Source: Escherichia coli (GTDB taxonomy: Bacteria > Pseudomonadota > Gammaproteobacteria > Enterobacterales > Enterobacteriaceae). Taken from it: a stretch of DNA of 64,000 nt. The position numbers and the translations under genes are program-made. This document shows, piece by piece, positions 1-61,450 of the stretch; the stretch's first letter is position 1; every line of letters starts with the position of its first letter. The notes under the pieces were generated by a model, which worked only from the letters and a program-made list of their open reading frames with translations, was not told the DNA's origin and made no database searches. The stretch is taken from assembly GCF_011045215.1 (NCBI RefSeq), contig NZ_CP049201.1. The stretch is one strand, 5' to 3'.

Positions 1-642
1 AGGACCCAGGAGTGGGTAACGCAGGGGCTTTCCGAAGCGGGTTATGTCATTGATGCCGTTTCTGATGGCAGAGATGGGCTTTATCTTGCGCTGAAGGATG
101 ATTATGCATTGATCATTCTGGATATTATGCTTCCGGGTATGGATGGCTGGCAGATCTTACAAACGTTAAGAACAGCAAAGCAAACCCCTGTTATTTGCCT
201 TACTGCAAGGGATTCTGTCGATGACAGAGTCAGAGGGCTGGATAGTGGAGCAAATGATTATCTGGTAAAACCTTTTTCATTTTCTGAGTTGCTGGCAAGG
301 GTTCGGGCACAATTAAGGCAACATCACGCTTTGAATTCAACATTAGAAATCAGTGGCTTAAGAATGGACTCTGTAAGTCAAAGTGTGAGCAGGGACAATA
401 TCAGTATTACACTGACGCGCAAGGAGTTTCAGTTACTTTGGCTACTGGCCTCCAGAGCTGGCGAAATTATACCCAGAACGGTTATTGCGAGTGAAATTTG
501 GGGAATCAACTTTGATAGTGATACCAATACGGTGGATGTCGCCATTCGCAGGCTCCGCGCAAAAGTTGATGATCCTTTTCCTGAAAAGCTAATCGCCACA
601 ATCCGGGGGATGGGCTATTCATTCGTAGCGGTAAAAAAATAA
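1..642 (+). CDS. hprR: Two-component response regulator HprR/YedW (OmpR family), 5'-partial at window edge
   Basis: Open frame runs from position 1; receiver domain and winged-helix C-terminus; directly followed by the sensor kinase gene with overlapping stop/start. Confidence 0.85.
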   Translation, partial: RTQEWVTQGLSEAGYVIDAVSDGRDGLYLALKDDYALIILDIMLPGMDGWQILQTLRTAKQTPVICLTARDSVDDRVRGLDSGANDYLVKPFSFSELLARVRAQLRQHHALNSTLEISGLRMDSVSQSVSRDNISITLTRKEFQLLWLLASRAGEIIPRTVIASEIWGINFDSDTNTVDVAIRRLRAKVDDPFPEKLIATIRGMGYSFVAVKK

Positions 643-2000
643 TGAAAAGATTATCTATAACCGTCCGTTTAACCTTGCTTTTTATATTGCTGCTGTCTGT
701 TGCTGGCGCTGGAATTGTCTGGACTCTCTATAATGGCCTGGCAAGTGAGTTGAAATGGCGCGATGATACAACACTCATTAACCGGACAGCACAGATCAAG
801 CAGTTGTTAATTGATGGGGTAAATCCAGATACGTTACCTGTATACTTTAACCGGATGATGGATGTTAGTCAGGATATCTTGATCATTCATGGTGATGGCA
901 TCAATAAAATTGTTAACCGGACAAATGTCAGTGATGACATGTTAAATAACATACCTGCTAGTGAGACAATCAGCGCAGCTGGCATTTACAGAAGCATTAT
1001 TAATGATACTGAGATTGATGCTTTACGAATTAATATTGATGAAGTTTCGCCATCATTAACGGTTACTGTGGCTAAATTGGCTTCAGCCAGACATAACATG
1101 CTTGAACAGTATAAAATTAATAGCATTATAATTTGCATTGTCGCCATTGTACTTTGCTCAGTATTAAGTCCGCTGTTAATCAGAACGGGATTACGAGAGA
1201 TCAAAAAGTTGAGTGGTGTAACGGAAGCGCTGAATTATAACGATAGCCGGGAGCCTGTTGAGGTTAGCGCATTACCGAGAGAACTAAAACCTCTTGGGCA
1301 GGCGTTGAATAAAATGCATCATGCTTTAGTCAAAGATTTTGAGCGTCTAAGTCAATTTGCTGACGATCTCGCTCATGAACTTAGAACGCCCATTAATGCA
1401 TTACTGGGTCAGAATCAGGTTACGCTCAGTCAAACCAGAAGTATCGCTGAATATCAAAAAACAATTGCCGGTAACATTGAAGAGCTGGAAAATATTTCGC
1501 GGTTAACAGAGAACATACTGTTTCTTGCCCGGGCAGATAAAAACAATGTTTTGGTGAAACTGGACTCGCTTTCTCTCAATAAGGAAGTCGAAAATTTGTT
1601 GGATTATCTTGAATACCTTTCAGACGAGAAAGAGATTTGCTTTAAGGTCGAGTGCAATCAGCAAATCTTTGCGGATAAAATTTTACTGCAACGAATGTTA
1701 TCGAATCTTATTGTTAATGCCATTAGATATTCACCAGAAAAATCGCGTATTCATATAACCAGTTTTCTTGATACCAACGGCTATCTTAATATTGATGTCG
1801 CCAGTCCTGGAACGAAAATTCATGAGCCTGAAAAACTCTTCCGTAGATTTTGGCGGGGAGATAATTCGCGTCATTCCGTAGGTCAGGGACTTGGTCTTTC
1901 TTTAGTCAAAGCGATTGCCGAATTACATGGGGGAAGTGCTACGTATCACTATCTCAATAAGCATAATGTGTTCCGGATTATGTTACCGCAAAGAAATTAA
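642..2000 (+). CDS. hprS: Sensor histidine kinase HprS/YedV
   Basis: 452 aa; N-terminal TM segments, H-box HELRTPINAL, HATPase motifs; coupled to upstream regulator. Confidence 0.88.
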   Translation: MKRLSITVRLTLLFILLLSVAGAGIVWTLYNGLASELKWRDDTTLINRTAQIKQLLIDGVNPDTLPVYFNRMMDVSQDILIIHGDGINKIVNRTNVSDDMLNNIPASETISAAGIYRSIINDTEIDALRINIDEVSPSLTVTVAKLASARHNMLEQYKINSIIICIVAIVLCSVLSPLLIRTGLREIKKLSGVTEALNYNDSREPVEVSALPRELKPLGQALNKMHHALVKDFERLSQFADDLAHELRTPINALLGQNQVTLSQTRSIAEYQKTIAGNIEELENISRLTENILFLARADKNNVLVKLDSLSLNKEVENLLDYLEYLSDEKEICFKVECNQQIFADKILLQRMLSNLIVNAIRYSPEKSRIHITSFLDTNGYLNIDVASPGTKIHEPEKLFRRFWRGDNSRHSVGQGLGLSLVKAIAELHGGSATYHYLNKHNVFRIMLPQRN

Positions 2001-2040
2001 CATAGGGCTTCAGTACGCCATAAATCAACCATGAAAAAAC

Positions 2041-2075
2041 GCAGCCACGTCGTGAGTATTAACGTGGCTGCGATT
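2041..2075. terminator. Hairpin between convergent hprS and hchA (gcagccacg...cgtggctgc)
   Basis: Inverted repeat directly after hprS stop in a convergent intergenic region. Confidence 0.5.
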
Positions 2076-2107
2076 GATTATGCGTTTACATTCAAACGTA
2101 ACAGGGA

Positions 2108-2959
2108 TTAATCCGCATAAGCTGCCAGCATTTCCTGCGCCGCCAGTTTACCCAACGCATTCGCTGCGAAAGGACTGTCGCCGGTGAGAACTTTACGGTC
2201 CTTATGTACTCGCCCGGTGATGTCGTCATTAATAATGTTCATGCCCATTTTCTTCAGCTCTTCGCCGAAGTACCAGGTGAGATGACCCGGCATATAGCCT
2301 ATCTCTGGCGTTTGTTTGTCTGCGGCGTCTGGGAATGCGCAAATGGAATAACCATTCAGTGGGTTATCGCCGTGGCGAAGCGCCAGAAAAGCCGCCGGGC
2401 CGTGGCAAAGGGAGATAACAAAACGGTCATTTTTGATTGCCCACTGCAAAGCAGCAGCTACGTCCTGGCTTTCTGGTAAACCAATAAGTGCGCCATGACC
2501 ACCAGGAACAAAGATTGCTGCATATTCGCTATCAGCGTTGAGGCTGGCGACAACATCCGCGAGTTTCTTCGGATTGCGGAACAACGATTTATGCTGCTCA
2601 AAGAATGGCATTACTTTTTCATCTTTGTGCGGCATAGCCCAGTATTCAAACTTGGTCATCAGACCGGAAATGGTCGCCACTTCGAATTCGAAACCTGCAG
2701 CATGGAGATGATACAACGGCAGCAACGTTTCAATCGGATGGTTACCGGTCGAGAACAGTTTTCCGTTATCGGTTGGCAAATAACGTTCGTCCGCGGCGAT
2801 CACCAGAATTTTATGCTTACCGCGATACGGTTTTGGATAGTCCACGCCATCAAGATCAGAGACGGGACTGGTATATTGGCTAAGCGAATATTCTGAAGGG
2901 AAGAATGCATTATCTTCAGCAATATCGACCTGCGGATTTTTACTTGTTTGAACAGTCAT
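2108..2959 (-). CDS. hchA: Hsp31 / glyoxalase III (DJ-1/PfpI family)
   Basis: 283 aa; MTVQTSKNPQVD N-terminus and DJ-1-type catalytic Cys context; conserved position. Confidence 0.93.
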   Translation of the reverse strand: MTVQTSKNPQVDIAEDNAFFPSEYSLSQYTSPVSDLDGVDYPKPYRGKHKILVIAADERYLPTDNGKLFSTGNHPIETLLPLYHLHAAGFEFEVATISGLMTKFEYWAMPHKDEKVMPFFEQHKSLFRNPKKLADVVASLNADSEYAAIFVPGGHGALIGLPESQDVAAALQWAIKNDRFVISLCHGPAAFLALRHGDNPLNGYSICAFPDAADKQTPEIGYMPGHLTWYFGEELKKMGMNIINDDITGRVHKDRKVLTGDSPFAANALGKLAAQEMLAAYAD

Positions 2960-3549
2960 AGTGTATTCCTTATTGTTGCTTAGTTAGGGTAGTCACTATA
3001 TTTGCGACTGAGCTGGTCGCTATTTTTAACCAGTCTGGAAAATTGAGTCAATATATCGAAAGCGGTAGTCGGCGGGTGTAAGTATGTAATGATGATGCTG
3101 CACTGGTGTTGAATATTATTCACGCCAAATTTTCCTTATTGAGCAACGTCGTCGCAAGTGGCCTCAATGATTTTAGACCATTATCAAAGGTACGGGGCGG
3201 CGGGGAGAGATTTAGTGCTGTGAAATATTGTGGTACTGATGAATATTTATATCGCGGATTGGTAGAGAAAAGATTATTTCATGCACTATTTTTGCAAATA
3301 TTTCTATATGGGAAGCGTGTTTGTTACGGATTAATTCATAAAGAAATGCATTTGGGTGTTGGTTTGAAGAGTCGCTGGTTGATGTTATTGTGCCAGGAGG
3401 GGCAGGGTAAGGTGCTGTATCGATATGCATTGGCAATTGCGTGTGCCGCAGATGGAGATGAAATGCCAATAAAAAAGCCTGAATTCGATGAGGGACGAAC
3501 TCAGGCTAGTGTTTAGTTTTACAGTAACACGCCGCAGCACGTTGGCTGA

Positions 3550-4713
3550 TTAGAACTGGTAGACTAAGCCCACACCAACAACGTCATCTGTTGCGATGCC
3601 ATTGTTGTCATAGAAATCGTCATCTTTATCCAACAAGTTTATTTTATAGTCAACATATGTTGAGAAGTTCTTATTGAAATAGTAGGTCGCTCCAATTTCA
3701 ACATAGTTGACCAGATCCTGATCAACATACTCTTGATGACCATTGTTGTTATAGTCGTTACCGCCGAGGTCTTTGCCTTTTGAATAAACATATGCAAGAG
3801 ATGGGCGCAGACCAAAATCGAACTGATACTGTGCTACAGCTTCAACGTTCTGGGTTTTATTTGCGATACCCACATTACCATATGGTGTCATATTGCGGGT
3901 TTCAGCATACATCATTGCAAGATAAACATTGTTGGCGTCGTATTTTGCACCAAATGTCCATGCTTCAGCTGTATCACCACCAGCAAATTTGCTGTATTCA
4001 TTGTAGTGATACCCGCCAAGAGCTACTTGAGAATTGGTACGGTCAGAGTTTGAGTAAGCGGCACCTAAGCTCAAACCGAAGTCAAAGTCATATGAAGTGG
4101 AAAGACCAAAACCATCACCGTTCTGGAAGCGAACGTCTTCGTGACCATTTTTAGTACCTTCTTGATCTTCTCCTGCATTGCTGCCTTCGTTGTTACCTTG
4201 ATACTGCAATGCAAAGTTCAGACCTTCCACCAGACCGAAGAAATCACTATTGCGGTAAGTAGCTACCCCATTTGCACGGCCTGCCATGAAGTTATCAGTC
4301 CAGGTATAGGAGTCGCCGCCGAATACAGGAAGCATATCTGTCCAGGCTTCAACGTCGTAAATCACACCATAGTTACGACCATAGTCAAAGGAGCCCATCT
4401 CGCCGAACTTCAGACCTGCAAAAGCAAGTTTGACATAAGTATTATCAGAACCTTCAGTGTCGCTAGCCTTTGTTTTGGTCAGTGCTTGACCATAACCAGT
4501 TAACTGATCTGTAATTTGGGTCTCACCTTTGAAGCCTAACTCGATGATAGTTTCATCGCCGTCATCGCCAGGGTTATCGGAAAAAGTATGACGAGCATCA
4601 ACTTTTCCGTACAGATCCAGTTTATTGCCATTTTTATTATAAATTTCAGCCGCATTTGCTGCGCCAGCAACTAATAACGCCGGGACCAGCATTGCCAGAA
4701 CTTTTCTTTTCAT
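3550..4713 (-). CDS. OmpC/OmpF-family outer membrane porin (yedS-like), apparently intact
   Basis: Start taken at internal ATG 4713 ([21 protein letters not shown] signal peptide); 387 aa; C-terminal ...VGLVYQF; AT-rich promoter region upstream. Confidence 0.85.
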
Positions 4714-5279
4714 TATGTATTCCCTTGTGATTATAATCTTCATGAATATATCAATAAGTGCCGTTATCCAAAAAAAAAGCACATTTGGATACTATTCTAT
4801 GAAGTTCATTTTATTTTAAAGATTACATGTAACAAATGTATTTAAAAGATTTCAAAATGCTTCTAATCTATTTAATATAATTCAGAATTATGAATTCTAA
4901 ATATAAACATTCATGAAAATTATAAATGTATATCAATATATTATGAGTTGAATGGAAAGATAGGGAGTATCAATGATTGTTGCGCCAAACGGCAGGCGTG
5001 ATCACGCGCACATTAATGAAGGTATAAAAAAAGCCGGCATCATGCCGGCCCAAAAAATATAAACAAGACGATAAAAGGCTAATAACGGGGTTATCATGAC
5101 ACAGAAATCAAAAAAGGTATAATTGTATTCAGTGCTAATATATTGTTTGGGTGAATTAATAAAACTATTACCAAGGATATAAATAAATCTTTATTGCTGT
5201 TTTTCCAGTAATTATTGCCGTTGCGCAAAATTTATCTATTTGTTCAAAAAATGATTGAGTCTCGACTGGCTCATCCAAT

Positions 5280-5645
5280 GTGGAAAAATGTGACTTTTAT
5301 CACATAATAGTACTAAGTCTGAATTTTCCGGGTTATCTCAAAATGGAATACGGTTCGACAAAGATGGAAGAGAGACTCTCTCGCAGCCCTGGCGGCAAAT
5401 TGGCTTTGTGGGCTTTCTATACATGGTGTGGCTATTTCGTCTGGGCAATGGCGCGTTACATCTGGGTGATGAGCCGGATCCCCGATGCCCCCGTGTCGGG
5501 ATTTGAAAGCGATTTAGGCTCTACCGCGGGAAAGTGGTTAGGGGCACTGGTCGGATTTTTATTTATGGCTCTGGTCGGGGCATTGTTAGGCAGCATTGCC
5601 TGGTACACCCGACCTCGTCCCGCACGTAGCAGACGCTATGAATAA
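5280..5645 (+). CDS. yedR: Small inner membrane protein (YedR-like)
   Basis: 121 aa ORF with two hydrophobic segments in the conserved position before yedJ; start codon uncertain. Confidence 0.6.
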   Translation: MEKCDFYHIIVLSLNFPGYLKMEYGSTKMEERLSRSPGGKLALWAFYTWCGYFVWAMARYIWVMSRIPDAPVSGFESDLGSTAGKWLGALVGFLFMALVGALLGSIAWYTRPRPARSRRYE

Positions 5646-5684
5646 AAACTGCTAAGGTGGCGACTCTTTGGCAACGGAGCGCGT

Positions 5685-6380
5685 ATGGACTTACAACACT
5701 GGCAGGCACAGTTCGAAAACTGGTTGAAAAACCATCATCAGCACCAGGACGCGGCCCATGACGTGTGTCATTTTCGCCGCGTCTGGGCTACGGCACAGAA
5801 GCTGGCGGCAGATGACGATGTCGATATGCTGGTGATTTTAACCGCCTGTTATTTTCACGATATTGTGAGCCTGGCGAAAAATCATCCGCAAAGGCAGCGT
5901 TCTTCAATCCTGGCGGCAGAAGAGACGCGTCGCCTGCTCCGTGAAGAGTTCGAGCAATTTCCGGCGGAGAAAATCGAGGCCGTTTGTCATGCCATTGCCG
6001 CTCACAGTTTCAGCGCGCAAATCGCCCCCTTAACAACGGAAGCTAAAATCGTCCAGGATGCGGATCGGCTGGAAGCCCTGGGGGCGATTGGCCTGGCGCG
6101 CGTGTTTGCCGTTTCAGGGGCATTGGGCGTGGCGCTGTTTGATGGTGAAGATCCGTTCGCACAGCATCGCCCGCTTGATGATAAACGCTACGCGCTGGAT
6201 CATTTCCAGACTAAGTTGCTGAAGCTACCGCAAACCATGCAAACCGCAAGAGGCAAGCAGCTGGCGCAGCACAACGCGCATTTTTTAGTCGAGTTTATGG
6301 CGAAGCTCAGTGCCGAACTGGCGGGGGAGAATGAAGGTGTCGATCACAAGGTGATAGATGCGTTTTCACCCGCGGGATAA
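5685..6380 (+). CDS. yedJ: HD-domain phosphohydrolase YedJ
   Basis: 231 aa; HD motif (CYFHDI); conserved position upstream of dcm. Confidence 0.88.
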
Positions 6381-6446
6381 GCGCGTGGCCCTAAATGGCT
6401 GTAATTATGTTAACCTGTCGGCCATCTCAGATGGCCGGTTAAATCT

Positions 6447-7865
6447 ATGCAGGAAAATATATCAGTAACCGATTCATACAGCACCGGGAATGCCGCACAG
6501 GCAATGCTGGAGAAACTGCTGCAAATTTATGATGTTAAAACGCTGGTGGCGCAGCTTAATGGTGTGGGTGAGAATCACTGGAGCGCGGCAATTTTAAAAC
6601 GTGCGCTGGCGAATGACTCGGCATGGCACCGTTTAAGTGAGAAAGAGTTCGCCCATCTGCAAACGTTGTTACCCAAACCACCGGCACATCATCCGCATTA
6701 TGCGTTTCGCTTTATCGATCTATTTGCCGGAATTGGCGGCATCCGTCGCGGTTTTGAATCGATTGGCGGACAATGCGTGTTTACCAGCGAATGGAACAAA
6801 CATGCGGTACGCACTTATAAAGCCAACCATTATTGCGATCCGGCGACGCATCATTTTAATGAAGATATCCGCGATATCACCCTCAGCCATAAAGAAGGCG
6901 TGAGTGATGAGGCGGTGGCGGAACATATTCGTCAACACATTCCTGAACACGATGTTTTACTGGCCGGTTTCCCTTGTCAGCCATTTTCGCTGGCTGGCGT
7001 ATCGAAAAAGAACTCGCTCGGGCGGGCGCACGGTTTTGCCTGCGATACTCAGGGCACGCTGTTCTTTGATGTGGTGCGCATTATCGACGCGCGTCGTCCG
7101 GCGATGTTTGTGCTCGAAAACGTCAAAAACCTGAAAAGCCACGACCAGGGTAAAACGTTCCGCATCATCATGCAGACGCTGGACGAACTGGGCTATGACG
7201 TGGCTGATGCAGAAGATAACGGGCCGGACGATCCGAAAATCATCGATGGTAAACATTTTCTGCCGCAGCACCGTGAACGCATCGTGCTGGTGGGTTTTCG
7301 TCGCGATCTTAATCTGAAAGCCGATTTTACTCTGCGTGATATCAGCGAATGTTTCCCTGCACAGCGAGTGACGCTGGCGCAGCTGTTGGACCCGATGGTC
7401 GAGGCGAAATATATCCTGACGCCGGTGCTGTGGAAGTACCTCTATCGATATGCGAAAAAACATCAGGCGCGCGGTAACGGCTTCGGTTATGGAATGGTTT
7501 ATCCGAACAATCCGCAAAGCGTCACGCGTACGCTGTCTGCGCGTTATTACAAAGATGGCGCGGAAATTTTAATCGATCGCGGCTGGGATATGGCCAAAGG
7601 TGAGAAAGACTTTGACGATCCGCTGAATCAGCAACATCGTCCACGTCGGTTAACGCCTCGGGAATGCGCGCGCTTAATGGGTTTTGAAGCGCCGGGAGAA
7701 GCGAAATTCCGCATTCCGGTTTCGGACACTCAGGCCTATCGCCAGTTCGGTAACTCGGTGGTCGTGCCGGTCTTTGCCGCGGTGGCAAAACTGCTTGAGC
7801 CAAAAATCAAACAGGCGGTGGCGTTGCGTCAGCAAGAGGCACAACATGGCCGACGTTCACGATAA
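6447..7865 (+). CDS. dcm: DNA cytosine-5 methyltransferase Dcm (CCWGG)
   Basis: 472 aa; FAGIGG SAM motif, PCQ catalytic motif, ENV motif. Confidence 0.95.
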
Positions 7866-8316
7866 GGCCACTCGCAGCAAAAATATGCGCGCGATTGCCA
7901 CGCGTGATACGGCGATTGAGAAGCGCCTCGCCAGTCTGTTAACCGGGCAGGGCCTGGCGTTTCGCGTTCAGGACGCCAGTCTGCCCGGTCGCCCGGATTT
8001 TGTCGTTGATGAATATCGCTGCGTGATATTTACCCATGGCTGCTTCTGGCATCATCATCACTGCTATCTGTTTAAAGTGCCTGCGACTCGAACCGAGTTC
8101 TGGCTGGAGAAGATAGGTAAAAATGTTGAACGCGATCGCCGCGATATCAGTCGTTTGCAGGAACTCGGCTGGCGCGTACTGATTGTCTGGGAGTGTGCAT
8201 TACGTGGGCGCGAGAAGCTGACGGATGAAGCGCTTACCGAGCGTCTGGAAGAGTGGATCTGCGGCGAAGGTGCCAGCGCGCAGATCGACACGCAGGGGAT
8301 TCATTTACTCGCTTGA
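7846..8316 (+). CDS. vsr: Very-short-patch repair endonuclease Vsr
   Basis: Start at ATG 7846 ([17 protein letters not shown]...), 156 aa; overlaps the 3' end of dcm in another frame, the classical dcm-vsr arrangement. Confidence 0.93.
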
Positions 8317-9225
8317 TGCGTCCTGAATCACTGGCGCAACTACGGGTTTTGCCGGGAAGAGATATTTTCCCAACGTGACCAGTACCACCGCGAAGACAAT
8401 TACGCCGAGCGCCAGCCATTCAATCTTCGACAGCGTTTCTCCGCCCAGTCCCGTACCCAGCAAGACCGCGACCACCGGGTTAACGTAGGCGTAGCTGGTG
8501 GCGAGAGCCGGACTGACGTTGCGGATTAAATACATATAAGCGTTAATGGCGATAATCGAACCAAACAGCGCCAGATAGCCGACCGCAAGGAAGCCTGAAA
8601 GGGAAGGGAGTGCCGTCAGTTTTTCACCTGCAATCATCGACGCGATCATTAACACCACGCCTGCCGCCAGCATCTCAATCGCACCCGCCATCATCCCTAC
8701 AGGTAAGGTAATGCGCGAGCCATAAACCGAGCCAAACGCCCAGCTAATCGAGCCGATTAAAATCAGAATCGCGCCCCACGGATTGCCGCTTAAATTTCCA
8801 CCGCTATTGAGCATGATGATTCCGGCAAGCCCAATGGCGATACCCACCCATTCCAGTTTGCGCGTTTTAATGCCAAACAGGCGGCTGAAGCACAGGGTAA
8901 AGAGGGGCACGGTTGCAACCACAACGGCGGCGATGCCGGAAGGAACATTTTGATGCTCGGCAACCGTCACCATGCCATTACCGACAGCCAGCAATAACAG
9001 GCCAATCACCGCGGCATTGAGCAGCGGACGTAGCGGGGGGAGTTTGTGTCCGCGCAGTAGCAAAAATGCCAGCAATAAAATACCGGCTGCCAGGAATCGA
9101 ACGCCCGCCATCATTAACGGAGGCCAGCTTTCCACGCCAATCCGAATGACAAAATAGGTTGAGCCCCAAATGATATACAACGCAAACAGCGCGCCAAAAA
9201 GCGGTAACAACTGGCGGAAACGCAT
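8305..9225 (-). CDS. yedA: EamA/DMT-family inner membrane transporter YedA
   Basis: 306 aa, ~10 TM segments, duplicated EamA domains. Confidence 0.88.
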   Translation of the reverse strand: MRFRQLLPLFGALFALYIIWGSTYFVIRIGVESWPPLMMAGVRFLAAGILLLAFLLLRGHKLPPLRPLLNAAVIGLLLLAVGNGMVTVAEHQNVPSGIAAVVVATVPLFTLCFSRLFGIKTRKLEWVGIAIGLAGIIMLNSGGNLSGNPWGAILILIGSISWAFGSVYGSRITLPVGMMAGAIEMLAAGVVLMIASMIAGEKLTALPSLSGFLAVGYLALFGSIIAINAYMYLIRNVSPALATSYAYVNPVVAVLLGTGLGGETLSKIEWLALGVIVFAVVLVTLGKYLFPAKPVVAPVIQDASSE

Positions 9226-22189: not shown

Positions 22190-25514
<3,325 letters not shown>

Positions 25515-25728
25515 CGCGCACCTCGTGGCTGATTATGGACGGCGTTATTGGCAAAGTGGAACAAGACTCACTCCCGGGTCAGCAAACTCGAAAAATTGAC
25601 GCTCCCATTATTTGTGCTTTCGTTTTTTTCTATCCGCCAATAAACCCGTTTTTTTGTTGTTATTTAGCGCCTTTGTCTTATTGACTTACTGGTAGGCTTT
25701 GCTACCAGAAATTATCCGGGAGACGAGA

Positions 25729-26043
25729 ATGTCAGCGATACAGGGGATTGAAGGGGTTATCAGCCAGTTACAGGCTACGGCGATGAGTGCGCGTGCGCAG
25801 GAATCACTGCCGCAACCGACCATTAGTTTTGCCGGGCAGCTGCACGCCGCGCTCGATCGCATTAGTGATACACAAACAGCTGCCCGCACGCAGGCAGAAA
25901 AATTCACTCTCGGTGAACCCGGCGTGGCGTTAAACGATGTGATGACCGATATGCAAAAAGCCTCAGTTTCTATGCAAATGGGGATTCAGGTGCGTAATAA
26001 GCTGGTGGCGGCGTATCAGGAAGTGATGAGCATGCAGGTGTAG
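25729..26043 (+). CDS. fliE: Flagellar hook-basal body protein FliE
   Basis: Start at ATG 25729 ([10 protein letters not shown]), 104 aa; divergent from fliF. Confidence 0.93.
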
Positions 26044-26376
26044 GTTTTGTAACCTGTTGGTAATTACTTCCAATCTCACCGCTTGGGGCATGGATGGGGC
26101 AAACTCACTCAATTTCTGGTTTAAAATGGATACCTGATCCTGAACGTTTTCTGCCATCCACGATCCGTAAACGCGATAACATGTTTTGTCTTCGCTTTGC
26201 TCATAGGAAGAGTGAACTCTTTTGTTAGCCTGGGGTTCCTTCTGATCATTATTGTTCCTGCCTTTATCTCTTGCCACGCCAGAGCCCCCTGGATACACAT
26301 ACACCAGGATGAAAACGGTGAGTTGTGTTCAAACTGTAGTACAATTCTCTCCAGTATGAACAGGAAAGAATATGCT

Positions 26377-26709
26377 ATGAACCCTTATATTTATCTTGGT
26401 GGCGCAATACTTGCAGAGGTCATTGGTACAACCTTAATGAAGTTTTCAGAGGGGTTTACACGGTTATGGCCCTCTGTTGGCACAATTATTTGCTATTGTG
26501 CATCATTTTGGTTATTAGCTCAGACACTGGCTTATATACCTACAGGGATTGCTTATGCTATCTGGTCAGGAGTCGGTATCGTTCTGATTAGTTTGCTTTC
26601 CTGGGGATTTTTTGGCCAACGACTGGACCTGCCAGCCATCATAGGCATGATGTTGATTTGTGCCGGTGTGTTAGTCATTAACTTGTTGTCACGAAGCGCA
26701 CCGCATTAA
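26377..26709 (+). CDS. emrE: Small multidrug resistance (SMR) efflux protein EmrE
   Basis: 110 aa (MNPYIYLGGAILAEVIGTTLMKFSEGF...), conserved Glu14 context; AGGAAAG RBS; upstream part of ORF-track entry not coding. Confidence 0.9.
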   Translation: MNPYIYLGGAILAEVIGTTLMKFSEGFTRLWPSVGTIICYCASFWLLAQTLAYIPTGIAYAIWSGVGIVLISLLSWGFFGQRLDLPAIIGMMLICAGVLVINLLSRSAPH

Positions 26710-26877
26710 AAAATAATCATCCTTGAGATAACAGGAATCTGATTTGTGCATATTATGGCTAATGTTCGGGGCAACTTTATAATTATGATTGCATTTGCGC
26801 GATCATTGCGCCTTTATGCATAATGAGATCAATGCACATCAAATAAAATAACGATAGGTCACAACAAAGAGGTTTTT

Positions 26878-27429
26878 ATGAAAAAACTTATCGTTTCAAG
26901 TGTATTGGCATTCATAACATTTTCTGCGCAGGCCGCAGCATTTCAGGTCACTAGTAATGAAATAAAAACAGGAGAGCAACTTACAACGTCTCATGTATTT
27001 TCTGGATTTGGGTGTGAGGGGGGTAATACATCGCCCTCATTAACCTGGTCTGGTGCTCCAGAAGGCACCAAAAGCTTTGCCGTAACTGTGTATGATCCAG
27101 ATGCGCCTACAGGCAGCGGATGGTGGCACTGGACTGTTGCTAATATTCCAGCAACGGTAACATATTTGCCCGCTGATGCAGGAAGACGTGATGGTACAAA
27201 ACTTCCGACTGGTGCTGTCCAAGGCCGAAATGATTTTGGCTATGCGGGATTTGGTGGAGCATGTCCTCCCAAAGGAGATAAACCCCATCATTACCAGTTT
27301 AAAATATGGGCTCTAAAAACTGATAAGATTCCTGTGGATTCTAATTCCAGCGGAGCGTTAGTTGGTTATATGCTTAATGCCAATAAAATTGCAACCGCTG
27401 AGATAATACCCGTTTATGAGGTAAAGTAG
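26878..27429 (+). CDS. Periplasmic PEBP/YbhB-YbcL family protein (YbcL-like)
   Basis: 183 aa with signal peptide; PEBP-like motifs (DPDAP, HYQF); in K-12 the homolog sits in DLP12 next to emrE. Confidence 0.8.
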   Translation: MKKLIVSSVLAFITFSAQAAAFQVTSNEIKTGEQLTTSHVFSGFGCEGGNTSPSLTWSGAPEGTKSFAVTVYDPDAPTGSGWWHWTVANIPATVTYLPADAGRRDGTKLPTGAVQGRNDFGYAGFGGACPPKGDKPHHYQFKIWALKTDKIPVDSNSSGALVGYMLNANKIATAEIIPVYEVK

Positions 27430-27438
27430 GATAAGAGT

Positions 27439-28236
27439 ATGCTGGCAAAAGATAGGACTAACCTAAAGATTGAAGAAATACGGATGCATAAACATCATGA
27501 GATTCACAGGGTTAAGCCTCTTATGCCAGCTTTATGTCGTATCCGTCAGGGAAAAAAAGTTATCAATTGGGAGACGCATAGTCTAACTGTTGATAATAAT
27601 CAGATAATATTATTTCCCTGTGGATATGAATTTTATATTGCGAATTACCCAGAAGCAGGTCTTTATCTTGCAGAAATGCTTTATTATCCCATTGATCTAA
27701 TTGAAAAGTTCCAAAATCTTTATGCGATAACCGATCAAATTCGTAACACGACAGGTTTCTGCTTACCTCAGAATCCCGAGTTAATATATTGTTGGGAGCA
27801 ACTAAAAACATCTATTTCCCGAGGCTTCTCAACGCAAATTCAGGAACACTTAGCAATGGGCGTTCTACTTTCATTAGGAGCACATCATGTTAATTGTTTA
27901 CTTTTATCAGATAGTAAACAATCATTAACAAGTCGTTGTTATAACCTAATGCTATCCGAACCTGGAACAAAATGGACAGCAAACAAGGTAGCGAGATATC
28001 TCTACATTTCTGTTTCCACATTGCATCGCCGTCTGGCAAGCGAGGGAGTAAGTTTTCAAAGTATATTGGACGACGTGAGGTTAAATAATGCGTTGTCTGC
28101 TATACAAACGACAGTAAAACCCATCAGCGAGATTGCCAGGGAAAATGGTTACAAGTGTCCTTCTCGTTTTACTGAAAGGTTCCATAATCGTTTTAAGATA
28201 ACACCAAGAGAGCTAAGAAAAGCGTCCAGAGAGTAA
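27439..28236 (+). CDS. AraC-family transcriptional regulator (YbcM-like)
   Basis: C-terminal AraC-type HTH; true start may be internal ATG at 27484. Confidence 0.78.
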
Positions 28237-29363
28237 AAGTATTTTATGAAGGAGCAACAGCATCGATTTTTATTTTGGAAAATAAATACGGCATACTCAA
28301 CCTATTGGAGCCTGAACAATCCGGTGACTTCTGCGCTAATCGGGGACGTTTATAAGCACATATAATTGATACTATCTTCCTCCATCACAATTTCAGAAAT
28401 GCACGTGTGATTTTTTTGCATCCGGCGTTTGGACTATGTGGAGTTCAAGAGTGGGAAAGTTACAAGAGGTTGAGGGGATAATTAAAGGGATGCTTATGAC
28501 ATTAGATATCCGGATAGGTACGGATATCGTTGTTATTAAATCTAGTTTATACGTTAAGATGCAGCTACAGCAGAAATTGCCACTGTTAATTTTTTCATCG
28601 TGAGCCCTTTTATTTTAACTATTATTTAAAAATGATGTCACTGCACTACAAATATTCATCCAATCAATGAGATTATTTCAAGATGTAAGTTTTAGTTTCT
28701 CATTTAAATTGTGAAGTAGATCCCTATCTTTATCTGAACTGTTTCTATTGCACACAATGCATGACTATTTTGTGAACGAATATAAATTTGGTAGTTAAAT
28801 TATATTAAAGGTTGTTATTTATGATTGACTCATGATTTATTTATTTAATTTAAATAGCCTAGAAATAACCATGGAAATTATTTGCATGATGTTTGTTTAG
28901 ATTTATTAATGTAATTGAGGTGGTTTTATTTAATACGCAATATAGCGCCGCTTGATATTAGTTCTATTTTTTTTGCGTAAGATAGATGAGACAAACTGAG
29001 ACGCATAATGGTTTGCAAGGCTCTAATACTTTGATGTTGAGGATGTGATGGGGCATGTACGGGGCATAGTACAATGATGTCCATGCTGGTGTAGATAATC
29101 TCCAGGCTTATCCGGTGCGCCGTAAAACCCCGTCCTTCAGGGCAGGGATATAAGGCGCGGTTTTCCACCTAACCAGGTGTTTGCTGTTGTTCAATGTATT
29201 GGCGCACCTCCGCAGCTACTGGCAAAATAGCCAGCACTCCACAAAACGCCTTTGTAGTAATACCTGACTGCAATATCTGGTCGATCTCGTCGCAGTAACC
29301 TACCCGATACGCCTTTGAGGCTGTTTACCAGACTGGATATCGCCAGTTTGGGAGGATAGTTAA

Positions 29364-29579
29364 TTAACAAACGTGATCTGGTTCGCCATCCATTTCAACC
29401 AGTTCAGCTTCAAAATCAGCACATACCTTTGAAAAGTAAGTGCGTAGTTTTTCTGTCGCGTCATGGTCAAAAATCTGGCGTCGGTATCTGGTGACAAAGA
29501 CCAGGTGAACATGCATCAGGAAAACACAATGCCTTCCACGCCGGATATCGGTTTCTTTTTTCACAGACCAAAGTATCAT
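29364..29579 (-). pseudogene. tnpA: IS200/IS605 Y1 transposase TnpA fragment (3'-truncated just before the HuH motif)
   Basis: 71 aa: ...HVHLVFVTRYRRQ... ends ...GEPDHVC-stop where HuH (HVHLL) is expected; full TnpA is ~140-150 aa. Confidence 0.65.
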
Positions 29580-29586
29580 TTGGCCT

Positions 29587-30795
29587 GTGAAACGACTACA
29601 GGCATTTAAATTCCAGTTAAGACCCGGTGGTCAACAGGAGCGTGAAATGAGGCGCTTCGCAGGCGCATGTCGTTTCGTTTTCAATCGTGCTCTGGCACGT
29701 CAGAATGAGAATCATGAGGCCGGTAATAAATACATCCCTTACGGGAAAATGGCTTCCTGGCTGGTTGAGTGGAAAAATGCCACTGAAACGCAATGGCTTA
29801 AAGATGCCCCGTCACAGCCATTGCAACAGTCACTGAAAGACCTTGAGCGGGCTTACAAAAACTTCTTCCGGAAGCGGGCTGCTTTTCCCCGATTCAAAAA
29901 GCGGGGACAGAATGATGCATTCCGCTACCCGCAGGGCGTTAAGCTCGATCAGGAAAACAGTCGTATTTTTCTGCCGAAACTTGGCTGGATGCGCTACCGG
30001 AATAGCCGTCAGGTCACGGGTGTTGTGAAAAATGTCACTGTCAGCCAGTCCTGCGGTAAGTGGTACATCAGTATTCAGACTGAAAATGAAGTATCAACTC
30101 CGGTTCACCCTTCAGCATTAATGGTCGGACTGGATGCTGGCGTGGCTAAACTCGCCACGCTGTCAGATGGCACAGTCTTTGGGCCTGTAAACAGTTTTCA
30201 GAAAAACCAGAAGACGCTGGCGAGACTTCAGCGACAGTTAAGCCGCAAGGTCAAATTCAGCAACAACTGGCAGAAGCAGAAACGCAAAATACAGCGACTG
30301 CATTCCTGTATCGCAAATATCCGCAGGGACTACCTTCACAAAGTCACAACGACCGTCAGCAAAAACCACGCAATGATAGTCATTGAGGATTTGAAGGTCA
30401 GCAACATGTCAAAGTCAGCAGCGGGTACGGTCAGCCAGCCGGGGCGCAATGTCCGGGCAAAATCAGGTTTAAACCGTTCGATACTGGATCAGAGCTGGTA
30501 TGAAATGCGCCGCCAGCTTGAGTACAAGCAGCTCTGGCGTGGCGGTCAGGTGCTTGCTGTTCCGCCAGCGTACACAAGCCAGCGTTGCGCGTGCTGTGGT
30601 CATACAGCGAAAGAAAATCGCCTGTCACAAAGTAAATTCAGATGCCAGGCATGTGGATATACAGCGAACGCTGATGTAAATGGCGCTCGTAACATTTTAG
30701 CGGCGGGGCACGCCGTTCTTGCCTGTGGAGAGATGGTGCAGTCAGGCCGCCCGTTGAAGCAGGAACCCACCGAAATGATTCAGGCGACAGCCTGA
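29587..30795 (+). CDS. tnpB: TnpB (OrfB_IS605; RuvC-like RNA-guided endonuclease family)
   Basis: 402 aa; RuvC-I GLDAGV, Ruv[10 protein letters not shown], Zn-ribbon CxxC...CxxC (QRCACCGH...RCQACGY), Ruv[14 protein letters not shown]. Confidence 0.9.
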
Positions 30796-30846
30796 ACGTA
30801 GCAGGGATCCTCGTCCTTCAGAGCGTGGAGGATGTCAACAAACAGG

Positions 30847-31506
30847 TTAAATTAACTCCGCGCCCTGGTTTTTGACATTACCTACCGCGCGCGATACCGG
30901 GTGCCAGGTGAACTGGTTTGCTGGCACACATCCACTGGTAGCAATTTCTGAGGCTTCTTTACCGCCAACCTCTTGCCGCATCCATTCCCGTGCAGCTTCT
31001 GGCGACAGAACCAGCGGGCGGCGGTCATGAATATCTACCAGACCTTGATCTGCCGCCGCAGTGACGATCAAAAATCCTTCGGCTTCGTCACCACGCTCAA
31101 ATGGTGTGCTTCCTATCGCGGCCATAAAAACAGGTTTTCCGTCAGTACGATAGATAAAATAAGGCTGCTTTTTGTCGCCTTCTTTTTTCCACTCAAACCA
31201 GCCATCGGCAAAACAGATTGCCCGACCGTGTTGCCAGAGCGGTTTAAACATGCGACTGGTTGCGGCAGTTTCTACGCGGGCGTTAATCAGCGGCGGTTTA
31301 TCCCACCATCCGGGAGCATATCCCCAGAAAACCGGATCCAGATGAAGGTGTTCATCACGTTCACTGAGCAGAAGAACTTTGGTTCCCGGCGCGACGTTGT
31401 ATCTGCCAATGGGTTCGGGATCGTAGGGAATATCGCGTTCAATATCTTCCGCGAGAAGCGCAAGGTAATCTTCACGCGTTTGGGATTGGGCAAAGCGTCC
31501 ACACAT
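30847..31506 (-). CDS. yedK: SOS-response-associated peptidase (SRAP) YedK, abasic-site processing protein
   Basis: 219 aa starting MCGRFAQ (catalytic Cys2). Confidence 0.9.
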   Translation of the reverse strand: MCGRFAQSQTREDYLALLAEDIERDIPYDPEPIGRYNVAPGTKVLLLSERDEHLHLDPVFWGYAPGWWDKPPLINARVETAATSRMFKPLWQHGRAICFADGWFEWKKEGDKKQPYFIYRTDGKPVFMAAIGSTPFERGDEAEGFLIVTAAADQGLVDIHDRRPLVLSPEAAREWMRQEVGGKEASEIATSGCVPANQFTWHPVSRAVGNVKNQGAELI

Positions 31507-60211: not shown

Positions 60212-61450
60212 TTATAAAGAATTGCTACTTTCTAATTCTGGGTTTCTGGATCTATTTTTACAACCTAAATCCGAGTGGTAATTCGGTATATCGTTTGTCA
60301 AATCTTGTTTGATAGCATTAATTAAGATCATTATGTCGAATTTATGCATATCGTCGCCCCCTTCAGACCTTAGATGTTCGGATGTGGTGAGTTGAGTCGC
60401 TAATTTGCTGTTTGGCCCCCACACAATATTGTTTTCGAATTTTCCTTCATGCATTCTGTTATTATATATACAGTATTGTCTAATGTTTAATCCACTGGCT
60501 AAATGTACAATAGCAGTATCTACAGTTATAACAAAATCAGCATGGCGAACCAATGCAAATGAACATCCGGCATCAGAAAATGGAGATAGAGACACATTAT
60601 CCAATCCATTGTGATTAATCTGTTCTCCCATATTAAAAACTATTGTGTGATATCCCTTAAGGTTATTAAGGTAAGCTAGTACTTTGTTTATCTGTTCATC
60701 AGATAATGTTCTGCTATTCTGAGAACCATAAGGGTTAAATATAACTAATTTTTTGTTTTTCTTCCTGAATTCATTTGCAACAATATTTGCTGGTTCATAT
60801 ATTTTGTTGTCAAAATTAAGCGCTGCAGCATAATTATTATTTTTTATCTTTAGTAAAGATAAAACTTTTTTCATTCTTTCAGATGTGTGAATGGAACGAT
60901 TATCGATTATATTTGTATCAAAAATAGTTACGGCAGGATGATTAAAACAGATAGAGTGTTTAGGTCTAAGTAAATGTAGTGTTTGCAATCTGGTTATCGC
61001 TGTGTTATCAAAATTTGAGAAGTCAACAACAAGATCTACATTCAGTTTTTTTATCTTTGCTTTTAGTTCGTTAAATTTATTTTTCTCGTAAGATATAAAG
61101 GCATCCACGCCAACAATATCAGTAAAGAGGAATGATACTCTTGAAGGTGCTATCACATATACCACCATACCGGATTTTTGAAGTTGTTTAATAAACCCTG
61201 AGGTAACGATGCCGTCACCAATGGCTTGCATGTGCATGAAAATGCACACTGTTTTATAACTATCCGGCTGTAATGATGTTTTCCTTCTGTATCGCATTTT
61301 TAGAAATGCCAGTCTGGCCTTCGTCTTTATCTTTTTTGTTTTAATATTTCGCTCTCTGTTAAGCTGTTTTAATGATGAAATAACATTCATAATGGTACCC
61401 TGAAAATCCAAATCACACATGTCATCCGAAATGAGCAGGATACTATACAA
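60212..61450 (-). CDS. Glycosyltransferase family 9 (ADP-heptose:LPS heptosyltransferase-like) cargo gene, AT-rich
   Basis: 412 aa; GT9-like N-terminal motif CIFMHMQAIGDGIVTSGFIKQL and C-terminal HADFVITVDTAIVHLASGLNIRQYCIY; sits between tail-fibre-assembly G and tail genes (Z/fun position); start may be internal. Confidence 0.7.
   Translation of the reverse strand: MYSILLISDDMCDLDFQGTIMNVISSLKQLNRERNIKTKKIKTKARLAFLKMRYRRKTSLQPDSYKTVCIFMHMQAIGDGIVTSGFIKQLQKSGMVVYVIAPSRVSFLFTDIVGVDAFISYEKNKFNELKAKIKKLNVDLVVDFSNFDNTAITRLQTLHLLRPKHSICFNHPAVTIFDTNIIDNRSIHTSERMKKVLSLLKIKNNNYAAALNFDNKIYEPANIVANEFRKKNKKLVIFNPYGSQNSRTLSDEQINKVLAYLNNLKGYHTIVFNMGEQINHNGLDNVSLSPFSDAGCSFALVRHADFVITVDTAIVHLASGLNIRQYCIYNNRMHEGKFENNIVWGPNSKLATQLTTSEHLRSEGGDDMHKFDIMILINAIKQDLTNDIPNYHSDLGCKNRSRNPELESSNSL

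Follow-up and report, generated by a model that had tools for sequence, protein, structure and literature searches.

Genomic context and segment map

We analyzed a 64,000-nucleotide stretch of the Escherichia coli chromosome (hereafter the window). It covers fliE–yedK, a variable site occupied by a small prophage remnant of the DLP12/PA-2 type (emrE–ybcL–ybcM…). The neighbouring genes in near-identical genomes are fliE, emrE, ybcL, ybcM, tnpA (pseudogene), tnpB, and yedK. Homology to the K-12 chromosome stops at 26180 and restarts at 29095. The region under study, 28240–29363, follows ybcM and had been described in an earlier, sequence-only reading as about 1.1 kb of strongly AT-rich non-coding DNA. 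We found that it resolves entirely into known kinds of piece, namely prophage relics, a backbone scrap, and the left end of IS609, with DNA homology explaining almost every base except about 160 bp at 28937–29094. The features are as follows.

27439–28236, plus strand: ybcM, an intact AraC-type regulator of 265 aa (Pfam HTH_18, E = 1e-16; annotated ybcM in ET745, ST866, and CFT073), left border
28237–28452, plus strand: DLP12-like DNA 3′ of ybcM, with a dead ylcH homologue (about 28353–28443) and a non-conserved 39-aa ORF (homology to K-12 DLP12)
28453–28557, plus strand: 3′ remnant of a quuD-like Q antiterminator gene, last ~33 codons (28453–28551 against the K-12 quuD end, 82%)
28527–28546, plus strand: 20-bp unit TCGTTGTTATTAAATCTAGT, a VNTR in other strains, in single copy in the window (alignment A4)
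28557–28558, no strand: deletion junction, at which 1,222 bp present in CFT073 are missing (window against CFT073 locus L004)
28554–28598, minus strand: porin stub, ATG and 13 signal-peptide codons (MKKLTVAISAVAAS), then a TAA that arises at the deletion junction
28599–29094: orphaned porin upstream regulatory region as a whole, 98% identical to CFT073
28599–28797, minus strand: candidate porin promoter and 5′UTR, equivalent to nmpC −1 to −199 (homology to CFT073, K-12, and PA-2)
28798–29094, no strand: distal porin upstream region and island end, AT-rich to about 29000 (PA-2/DLP12 homology ends at about 28927–28936)
29095–29112, no strand: 18-bp backbone scrap that belongs 3′ of yedK and has the IS609 target TTATC at its end (100% to K-12 L014 5989–6006, directly after yedK)
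29113–29168, plus strand: non-coding left end of IS609 with the subterminal imperfect hairpin CCCCGTCCTTCAGGGCAGGG (CFT073 empty site; homology)
29169–29579, minus strand: IS609 tnpA pseudogene, of which 29169–29363 lies inside the studied stretch (alignment A3 against the intact 143-aa IS609 tnpA)
29587–30839, plus strand: remainder of IS609, comprising an intact 402-aa tnpB (29587–30795, annotated RNA-guided endonuclease InsQ/TnpB) and the right end

The GC content was 37.5% across 28240–29363 against 49.2% for the window. By segment, it was 38.9% at 28237–28452, which is not below the 35–41% profile of the adjoining ybcM, 35.2% at 28453–28557, 26.9% at 28599–28999, 45.1% at 29000–29112, and 51.0% at 29113–29363 (IS609 left end and second half of tnpA). 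The true AT-rich core is 28599–28999, the sole strongly AT-rich part, and the lowest-GC 400-bp window in all 64 kb begins at 28533 (26%). The sequence-only reading was therefore right that very AT-rich DNA is present and that no convincing gene lies between ybcM and the IS, but the strongly AT-rich DNA amounts to about 450–500 bp rather than 1.1 kb.

Prophage relics and loss of the porin gene

The possibility that the stretch is decayed phage DNA had been raised together with a proposed alignment to DLP12 downstream of ybcM; this alignment resolved the region and bore the possibility out. Window positions 26723–28443 aligned with K-12 DLP12 ybcL–ybcM–ylcH at 89%, and the start codon of the ylcH homologue is mutated from ATG to ATA. 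The ORF that had been singled out as an example at 28245–28364 exists, one base further on (28246–28365, the 39-aa ORF), but has no Pfam match and is not conserved in K-12, where its ATG reads AAG in the DLP12 homologue and the frame is lost to a 1-bp indel. Farther right, the Q stub peptide GKLQEVEGIIKGMLMTLDIRIGTDIVV aligns to QuuD GKRLQKAEGIIEGMLMALDIRLEMDIVV. The Q stop codon is mutated from TGA to TTA, and the 55-aa ORF at 28436–28603 is therefore a chimeric read-through. The 20-bp unit TCGTTGTTATTAAATCTAGT within the stub occurs once in the window and in CFT073, twice in strain 89-3156, three times in ST866, and six times in 20KM0223N.

The surviving pieces keep the order and orientation of the Q–S interval of lc/nmpC lambdoid phages (PA-2; DLP12 quuD–nmpC–essD; 434B; PhiR29_1, Kati, and ev243). 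The layout of these phages is Q, a porin on the minus strand, an AT-rich spacer, and then S, R, and Rz, and the window retains the sequence of Q 3′ end, opposite-strand porin start, and AT-rich porin upstream region. It differs from them in keeping only about 100 nt of Q, with the rest of the gene missing, and 41 nt of the porin, and in lacking the nin genes (ybcN, ninE, ybcO, rusA, and ylcG) and the lysis genes S/R/Rz. No holin, endolysin, or spanin gene follows the spacer; the island stops at about 29094 and is succeeded by backbone, IS609, and yedK. DLP12 itself was rejected as the identity of the island, which is located at fliE–yedK rather than at the DLP12 site, is flanked by fliE and yedK, and lacks ybcK/ylcJ and the nin region. 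The distal ~160 bp of the island have no phage match. A literature search on the ybcL/ybcM/emrE/fliE island found nothing useful.

The fliE–yedK island of UPEC CFT073/UTI89 (emrE–ybcL–ybcM–porin c2348, "nmpC precursor") proved to be the same island at the same site. Window positions 25500–28557 correspond to CFT073 L004 3710–6778 and 28558–29112 to L004 8001–8555, with 97.5–98% identity on either side of the deletion and the ylcH′–Q stub fusion present in both. CFT073 keeps the 1,083-nt (360-aa) porin and its terminator and is without IS609, whereas the window lacks 1,222 bp and carries an additional 1,727 bp of IS609. The deletion took the porin CDS except for 41 nt, along with 180 bp 3′ of it and a hairpin that resembles a terminator (GGGGCGTTGAAACGCCCC), leaving a junction that reads ACGTTAA on its left and GATGCAGC on its right. 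Of the lc/nmpC-type porin expected on the opposite strand, 14 codons are left, the same as the first 14 in the lc/nmpC lambdoid phages; the residues they encode are those with which the CFT073 porin begins, and they also agree with the beginnings of PA-2 lc and K-12 nmpC. The IpeX sRNA of DLP12 is reported to have been placed by Castillo-Keller et al. in 2006 at the nmpC 3′ end/nmpC–quuD spacer. If this position is right, the equivalent DNA by alignment (CFT073 L004 6779–6958 and the porin 3′ end) would fall wholly within the 1,222-bp deletion.

IS609 insertion and decay of its transposase gene

Comparison with CFT073, which is without the IS, set the limits of IS609 at 29113 and 30839, each to within 1 bp. 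The CFT073 empty site reads GGCTTATC followed by AAACAGG, and the insertion is precise after TTATC, without target duplication. The window copy is 94–95% identical to copies annotated IS609, and its left and right ends both carry CGTCCTTCAG(G/A)GC. It shares the traits of IS609 (IS200/IS605 family; K-12 insQ-type TnpB), including divergent tnpA/tnpB, subterminal hairpins, the absence of terminal inverted repeats, and a position directly 3′ of TTAT(C); the TnpB ORF, the conserved ends, and an insertion that duplicated no target were all found. Unlike intact IS609, the window copy has a dead tnpA, in which the HUH motif is lost and a 17-bp deletion is present, alongside the intact 402-aa tnpB. 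A weak RAGATH-18 match was seen at the right end of the IS (30722–30765; 25.4 bits, below the gathering score).

Two lesions were located in tnpA: a 4-bp deletion at 29371/29372, which takes TCCA out of the HVH/HUH motif, and the 17-bp deletion at 29200/29201. The former shifts the frame and leads to a stop at 29364–29366, while tnpA sequence runs on to 29169 and the IS to 29113. The two halves of tnpA match Y1_Tnp positions 1–53 and 55–111 in different frames (E ~ 1e-14 each), the second half being the ORF at 29191–29370 on the minus strand (Pfam, E = 8e-14). The annotations of ET745 and ST866 list tnpA as a pseudogene.

The sequence-only reading had taken 28240–29363 as a single non-IS spacer, with tnpA cut short by a deletion whose edge is 29364. 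The ORF for the N-terminal part of tnpA does stop there, but the stop results from the 4-bp frameshift, and the only lesions are the two small deletions. With IS609 homology extending to 29113 and the empty site placing the boundary at 29112/29113, a right boundary at 29363 had to be given up, since 29113–29363 is IS609 DNA that includes half of tnpA. A single spacer bounded by a truncating deletion is almost certainly wrong.

Distribution of alleles across E. coli

We estimated allele frequencies from BLAST coverage thresholds over 5,426 E. coli genomes, so that the following are counts rather than a phylogeny. The window allele (junction 28557/28558, IS609 present) was found in about 1,070 of the 5,426 genomes (about 1,072 by the count of the junction) and the porin-intact allele in about 430. 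Another 1,108 genomes carry a further 651-bp deletion, in which 28583–29211 is lost and the junction 28557/28558 is retained; this deletion lies between 8-bp repeats GCAGCTAC. Relative to CFT073, the non-coding pieces diverge by 0.9–2.5%, compared with 1.4–2.4% for ybcM and ybcL. As judged from these comparisons, the stretch evolves like its surroundings and is dispensable, because 1,108 genomes have lost the AT-rich part.

The AT-rich core as an orphaned porin upstream region

The suggestion that the stretch might be a regulatory region turned out to be true of the AT-rich core, which is the upstream DNA of the deleted porin (nmpC/lc/CFT073 c2348). By homology, this core is the porin gene's promoter, 5′UTR, and regulator-binding region, orphaned by the loss of the CDS. 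Positions 28558–28936 aligned at 81–82.5% with 36 lambdoid phages, over the 5′ end of lc/nmpC and the DNA upstream of it, and the identity of 28599–28797 was 98.0% to CFT073, 82.5% to K-12, and 81.5% to PA-2. On the minus strand, we recognized the RBS AAGGG at 28609–28605, a candidate −10 GAATAT (28657–28652), and a candidate −35 TTGAAA (28681–28676), the placement of −35, −10, and TSS being a reading of alignment A2 and not a mapped TSS in this strain. A CRP-like site, TGTGAAGTAGATC (8/10 to consensus), is located at 28710–28725, homologous to one of the CAP sites annotated in the PA-2 record, so the core has both the AT-rich composition and the Crp/CAP site of an lc/nmpC-type porin upstream region. 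An alternative promoter, GTGACA-18-TAAAAT (28641–28612, minus strand), was rejected, as it needs a strain-specific substitution and is too near the RBS. Promoter-like sites in a consensus scan were rarer than in shuffles. In the distal part, 28937–29110 had no match in the phage database, and nothing outside the island matched its final ~160 bp (28937–29094); the tandem-repeat scan returned a single result, an 11-bp tandem duplication at 29050–29072.

The K-12 promoter PnmpC lies inside −199 to −1, was detected by 5′RACE, and is active and Crp-activated, with Crp, OmpR, IHF, and MprA as regulators (PMC11677980). Among the blocks that the window shares with PnmpC (82.5% over 199 bp) are both candidate hexamers, TTGAAA and GAATAT, and the counterpart of the Crp site. 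In K-12, nmpC::IS5 and the IS5 transposase are expressed from this promoter (PMC11677980), whereas its counterpart in the window has a 14-codon stub and faces ybcM in antisense. The orphan promoter probably still fires, because it is 98% like the DNA upstream of CFT073 c2348, which is strongly expressed at 37 °C (PMC12890032), and is homologous to the Crp-activated PnmpC. Its transcript would carry the 14-codon stub ORF and run leftward, antisense to the Q stub, towards ybcM. Scanning the minus strand from 28598 to 26000 revealed nothing that resembles a terminator; with no intrinsic terminator ahead of it, the transcript would probably be ended by Rho.

Such a transcript could in principle have been co-opted, lowering ybcM (perhaps also ybcL/emrE) in antisense under the control of cAMP-Crp, temperature, or osmolarity. 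The near-identity of the promoter region to that of an expressed porin, the position of the porin terminator hairpin within the deleted segment, and the clear path as far as 26000 are in line with this scenario. However, an RNA untranslated beyond 14 codons is a typical Rho substrate, the hypothetical RNA is structurally ordinary (folding z = −0.08), the region shows no sign of extra conservation, and the 1,108 genomes that have lost the stretch carry ybcM. We therefore regard co-option as improbable. More improbable still is the broader proposal that the orphan promoter, 5′UTR, and 14-codon stub are still transcribed in response to Crp or temperature and are regulatory, acting as a ybcM antisense RNA or as a decoy for RybB/RyhB-type sRNAs that pair with the nmpC leader. 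If this were true, about 20% of E. coli would possess a new regulatory RNA derived from the leader of a deleted gene.

The composition of the core also bears on whether it is a silent, H-NS-bound patch that is kept to insulate or silence the island or IS609. Its 27% GC over 400 bp is the lowest in the window, and H-NS targets typically have such a composition. For this, PMC5811629 cites Navarre 2006 and Lang 2007. Against such a role, the homologous promoter of K-12 is active and is not reported as H-NS-silenced (PMC11677980), and at 37 °C CFT073 strongly expresses the porin that follows the 98%-identical region (PMC12890032). A literature search for H-NS at nmpC found no direct statement. The stretch is dispensable in 1,108 genomes, and passive binding, if any, would not be a selected function, which makes a maintained silencing patch very unlikely. 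An orphaned porin upstream region remains the preferred reading of the core.

Search for small RNAs and small proteins

The sequence-only reading had further suggested small RNA or small-protein genes and an Rfam scan to look for them. The Rfam 15 covariance scan of 26000–31000 (E ≤ 1) gave no match within 28240–29363; its sole match was the RAGATH-18 one at the right end of the IS. Folding z-scores of the AT-rich core were +0.60 and +0.75 for the two strands, and neither these nor the value for the hypothetical orphan transcript pointed to unusual structure. ORFs of at least 25 aa in 28600–29168 were limited to 25, 36, and 80 aa, the last starting inside the IS. The 39-, 55-, and 80-aa ORFs had no Pfam match, and each proved either to lack conservation or to be a chimera spanning the Q stub/porin junction or the IS boundary.

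Long AT-rich non-coding DNA in prophages sometimes harbours such genes, and 37–49-aa "hypothetical proteins" have been called in the homologous spacer of some phages. The positions of these phage ORFs are nevertheless inconsistent between records, and the K-12 MG1655 record, which lists proteins down to YlcH (33 aa), has nothing annotated in the homologous nmpC–essD spacer. Together with the absence of Rfam and Pfam matches, the folding scores, and the loss of the stretch in 1,108 genomes, these observations make a hidden small RNA or small-protein gene extremely unlikely, and this part of the earlier description was not upheld.

Origin and meaning of the stretch

The kinds of sequence found in 28240–29363 are already known, and the comparisons make it very likely that the stretch is a mosaic of relics without demonstrable function of its own, produced by ordinary genome decay and not a new element. 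The ancestral island would have run from fliE to yedK as emrE – ybcL – ybcM – ylcH′ – ′Q – porin (minus strand) – porin upstream region. In the proposed course of events, the 1,222-bp deletion would have removed the porin ORF and terminator, bringing the Q stub against the first 14 porin codons. IS609 would have entered the yedK stop codon, just to the right of the island, and the 4-bp and 17-bp deletions would later have killed its tnpA.

We consider this a clean negative: an AT-rich "gene desert" beside an IS is accounted for by a prophage remnant, the loss of its porin ORF by deletion, and the insertion of an IS609 whose transposase gene then decayed, and the stretch opens no new question. 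The annotation is corrected in two respects: the first base of IS609 is 29113, and tnpA carries a frameshift instead of a truncation. The three-step allele series at fliE–yedK (porin intact; porin lost and IS609 gained; AT-rich stretch lost) could serve to mark lineages of E. coli.

Composition and make-up of the stretch between ybcM and IS609

The stretch at 28240-29363 has a GC content of 37.5% overall, against 49.2% for the window, and its composition is uneven. The sequence-only reading had described about 1.1 kb of strongly AT-rich DNA; the AT-rich core is real, but it is about 450-500 bp long and the right quarter of the stretch is not AT-rich. AT content in the left segment does not exceed that of the adjoining ybcM, and the lowest-GC 400-bp window in all 64 kb begins at 28533 (26%). 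Other 400-bp windows below 30% GC lie at ~4544-5260 and ~60524-61200. Judged by alignment, almost every base can be assigned to known kinds of sequence, namely the lambdoid prophage Q-porin-lysis module, the CFT073-type fliE-yedK island and IS609, the exception being ~160 bp (28937-29094) found only in this island.

Features and GC content of the stretch
28237-28452: ybcM downstream region, matches DLP12
28453-28557: 3' end of the Q antiterminator gene (Q stub), 82% identical to the quuD end
28557/28558: deletion junction, 1,222 bp gone relative to CFT073
28599-29094: porin upstream region, matches lc/nmpC upstream DNA to 28936
29095-29112: chromosomal backbone, 18 bp, the sequence after yedK in K-12
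29113-29168: IS609 left end, 56 bp, inside the stretch
29169-29363: second half of tnpA, inside the stretch
GC by segment: 28237-28452, 38.9%; 28453-28557, 35.2%; 28599-28999, 26.9%; 29000-29112, 45.1%; 29113-29363, 51.0%

A DLP12-like island between fliE and yedK

The 1.2 kb surrounding the stretch is matched across 80% or more of its length by 1,029 complete E. coli genomes, the highest identity being 99.3%. Because the annotated neighbours in these genomes are fliF, fliE, emrE, ybcL, ybcM, tnpA (as a pseudogene), tnpB, yedK, yedF and yedE, that is, genes of the fliE and yedK sides, we rejected the K-12 DLP12 prophage itself as the identity of the locus, which is a small DLP12-like island within the variable fliE-yedK interval. 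K-12 backbone homology ends at 26180 on the fliE side, returns for 18 bp at 29095-29112 and resumes from 30839 in yedK; K-12 has yedL, yedN and intG instead of the island, and its intG bears the annotation "cryptic prophage PR-G". Between emrE and ybcL the island is without the DLP12 genes ylcJ and ybcK (a recombinase gene), and at 26711-26723 the homology skips from 1150 to 3239 of the K-12 DLP12 locus (L003).

Alignment to DLP12 downstream of ybcM, which the sequence-only reading had proposed, proved the right test. Window 26723-28443 matched ybcL, ybcM and the start of ylcH at 89% aligned identity, and the quuD end followed at 82%. Both "decayed phage DNA" and "regulatory region" were correct suggestions, corresponding to the DLP12/Q remnant and the porin upstream region, respectively. 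The ylcH homologue is dead (start ATG to ATA), and the Q-stub peptide, GKLQEVEGIIKGMLMTLDIRIGTDIVV, parallels the C-terminus of QuuD. Since CFT073 has the same ylcH'-'Q fusion, the fusion is older than the porin deletion and the IS609 insertion. The Q stop codon has mutated from TGA to TTA, so that a 55-aa ORF appears at 28436..28603; it was rejected as a gene, being chimeric and reading across the porin-deletion junction. At the end of the Q stub (28527-28546), the 20-bp unit TCGTTGTTATTAAATCTAGT is a variable-number tandem repeat among the strains compared (the window and loci L002, L011 and L012), with one copy in the window and in CFT073, two in 89-3156, three in ST866 and six in 20KM0223N.

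Loss of the porin gene

In uropathogenic CFT073 the same island has no IS and includes an intact porin of 360 aa, encoded on the minus strand; the porin is annotated "ompC" in the record and named c2348 or "nmpC precursor" in the literature. Window 25500-28557 corresponds to 3710-6778 of the CFT073 locus (L004; 97.5%) and 28558-29112 to 8001-8555 (98.0%). The 1,222 bp lost between them take in all of the porin CDS beyond nucleotide 41, together with 180 bp of 3' flank and the hairpin GGGGCGTTGAAACGCCCC. What remains is a minus-strand stub, the ATG at 28598 and 13 further codons (MKKLTVAISAVAAS), closed by a TAA made by the junction.

The AT-rich core as a porin upstream region

Positions 28558-28936 match the 5' end and upstream DNA of lc/nmpC in 36 lambdoid phages (PA-2, 434B, PhiR29_1, Kati, ev243 and others) at 81-82.5%, as well as K-12 nmpC, and over the 199 bp upstream of the porin ATG identity is 98.0% to CFT073, 82.5% to K-12 and 81.5% to PA-2. 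Functional lambdoid phages have the order Q, porin (minus strand), AT-rich spacer and S, R, Rz, whereas the remnant here lacks most of the features that mark membership of this module. The last ~160 bp match only other copies of the island; within this distal part, 29050-29072 holds an 11-12-bp tandem duplication, GGGGCAT(G/A)TAC x2.

The CAP site annotated in the PA-2 record 109-129 nt upstream of the lc ATG has a homologue, TGTGAAGTAGATCCCT, at 28710-28725 (8/10 consensus positions). Candidate promoter elements TTGAAA (28681-28676) and GAATAT (28657-28652) and a putative RBS, AAGGG (28609-28605), are conserved in the alignment of this upstream region. The best sigma-70-like match, GTGACA-18-TAAAAT (10/12; 28612-28641, minus strand), was made by a strain-specific change from TCAAAT in CFT073 to TAAAAT; lying only ~14 nt upstream of the porin ATG, it is probably fortuitous. 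In K-12, PnmpC lies within -199..-1 of the nmpC start codon, with its start site mapped by 5'RACE; it is strong enough to drive the IS5 transposase located within nmpC, and the paper describes activation by Crp through two sites, repression by OmpR, IHF and MprA, and an sRNA-controlled leader (PMC11677980). The CFT073 porin c2348, at the same locus, is strongly induced at 37 °C as RNA and protein (PMC12890032). The AT-rich core is most likely a promoter region without its gene.

Given the 98% identity between this region of the window and its CFT073 counterpart, the orphan promoter may still initiate transcription; weighing in possible H-NS effects and lost context, we put the chances at about even. 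Silencing of the core by H-NS, also suggested earlier, is not favoured by the literature on homologues. After a 14-codon ORF, an orphan transcript would continue in the direction of ybcM, antisense to the Q stub, along a path in which no intrinsic terminator was found; Rho normally terminates untranslated RNA of this type. Such transcription, as proposed, is no evidence of function.

Search for hidden RNA or small-protein genes

The suggestion that the stretch holds sRNA or small-protein genes found no support. An Rfam scan of 26000-31000 (E<=1) returned nothing within it, and its sole match was a sub-threshold RAGATH-18 at the right end of the IS. Compared with shuffled sequence, folding showed no excess of structure in the AT-rich core (plus strand, z = +0.60; minus strand, z = +0.75) or in the hypothetical orphan transcript (z = -0.08). 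The core has few ORFs that reach 25 aa, and these are short or chimeric. The 39-aa ORF offered as an example (28246..28365) is not conserved, K-12 having AAG for its ATG and a 1-bp frame-shifting indel, and has no Pfam match. Small "hypothetical proteins" in the homologous phage spacer vary between records, and the K-12 MG1655 record, which lists proteins down to the 33-aa YlcH, has no annotation between nmpC and essD.

IS609 at the right edge

From the empty site in CFT073, GGCTTATC/AAACAGG, IS609 extends over 29113-30839 (1,727 bp, with 1 bp of ambiguity), inserted after TTAT(C) within the yedK stop codon (TC/A in CFT073). The copy is 94-95% identical to annotated IS609 copies. Its left end and the second half of tnpA fall within the stretch, so the right boundary of the supposed non-coding DNA was misplaced, and 29364, read as the end of a deletion truncating tnpA, is a frameshift-induced stop rather than the gene end. 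Relative to the intact 143-aa tnpA, a 4-bp deletion (TCCA) at 29371/29372 abolishes the HVH (HUH) motif and brings in the stop at 29364-29366, and a second deletion removes 17 bp at 29200/29201; two ORF pieces in different frames match Pfam Y1_Tnp 1-53 and 55-111. Despite the dead tnpA, tnpB (29587-30795, 402 aa) is intact. The RAGATH-18 match, near the tnpB 3' end (30722-30765), is weak (25.4 bits against a gathering score of 44.9, E=0.16) and lies at a position in which TnpB guide (omega) RNAs are encoded.

In the window, yedK (30847-31506, minus strand) ends three codons early through CAA to TAA (219 aa vs 222). The flanks left of two independent IS609 insertions are alike, CCTGGTTTATC in O157:H7 MB9-1 (L008, 1778-1800) and CCAGGCTTATC at 29095-29112, a hint that the preferred target extends beyond TTAT.

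Alleles across E. coli

A 180-bp probe over the 28557/28558 junction was at least 80% covered in 1,072 of 5,426 genomes, and the IS609 left junction was covered in 1,096. The porin-deletion junction is identical in all carriers examined, and only the copy number of the 20-bp unit varies (1, 2, 3 or 6). The AT-rich stretch is present at coverage of at least 80% in 1,501 genomes, and the porin-intact CFT073-type allele in about 430, a count by subtraction. In what is a small sample, the non-coding pieces differ from CFT073 to much the same degree (0.9-2.5%) as ybcM/ybcL (1.4-2.4%).

A third allele, found in 1,108 genomes (e.g., strain LAU-OXA, L013 2426-2950), has the same porin-deletion junction and lacks 28583-29211, lost in a deletion of 651 bp with the 8-bp repeats GCAGCTAC (28561 and 29212) as its breakpoints, so that the entire AT-rich stretch is gone. 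The 3' part of tnpA is fused to the porin stub, and the annotation calls the fusion an "intact" IS200/IS605 transposase of 174 aa; tnpB and yedK are truncated. The simplest order of events would lead from an intact porin, through porin deletion and IS609 insertion, to deletion of the AT-rich stretch. Because these 1,108 genomes do without it, the AT-rich stretch is dispensable.
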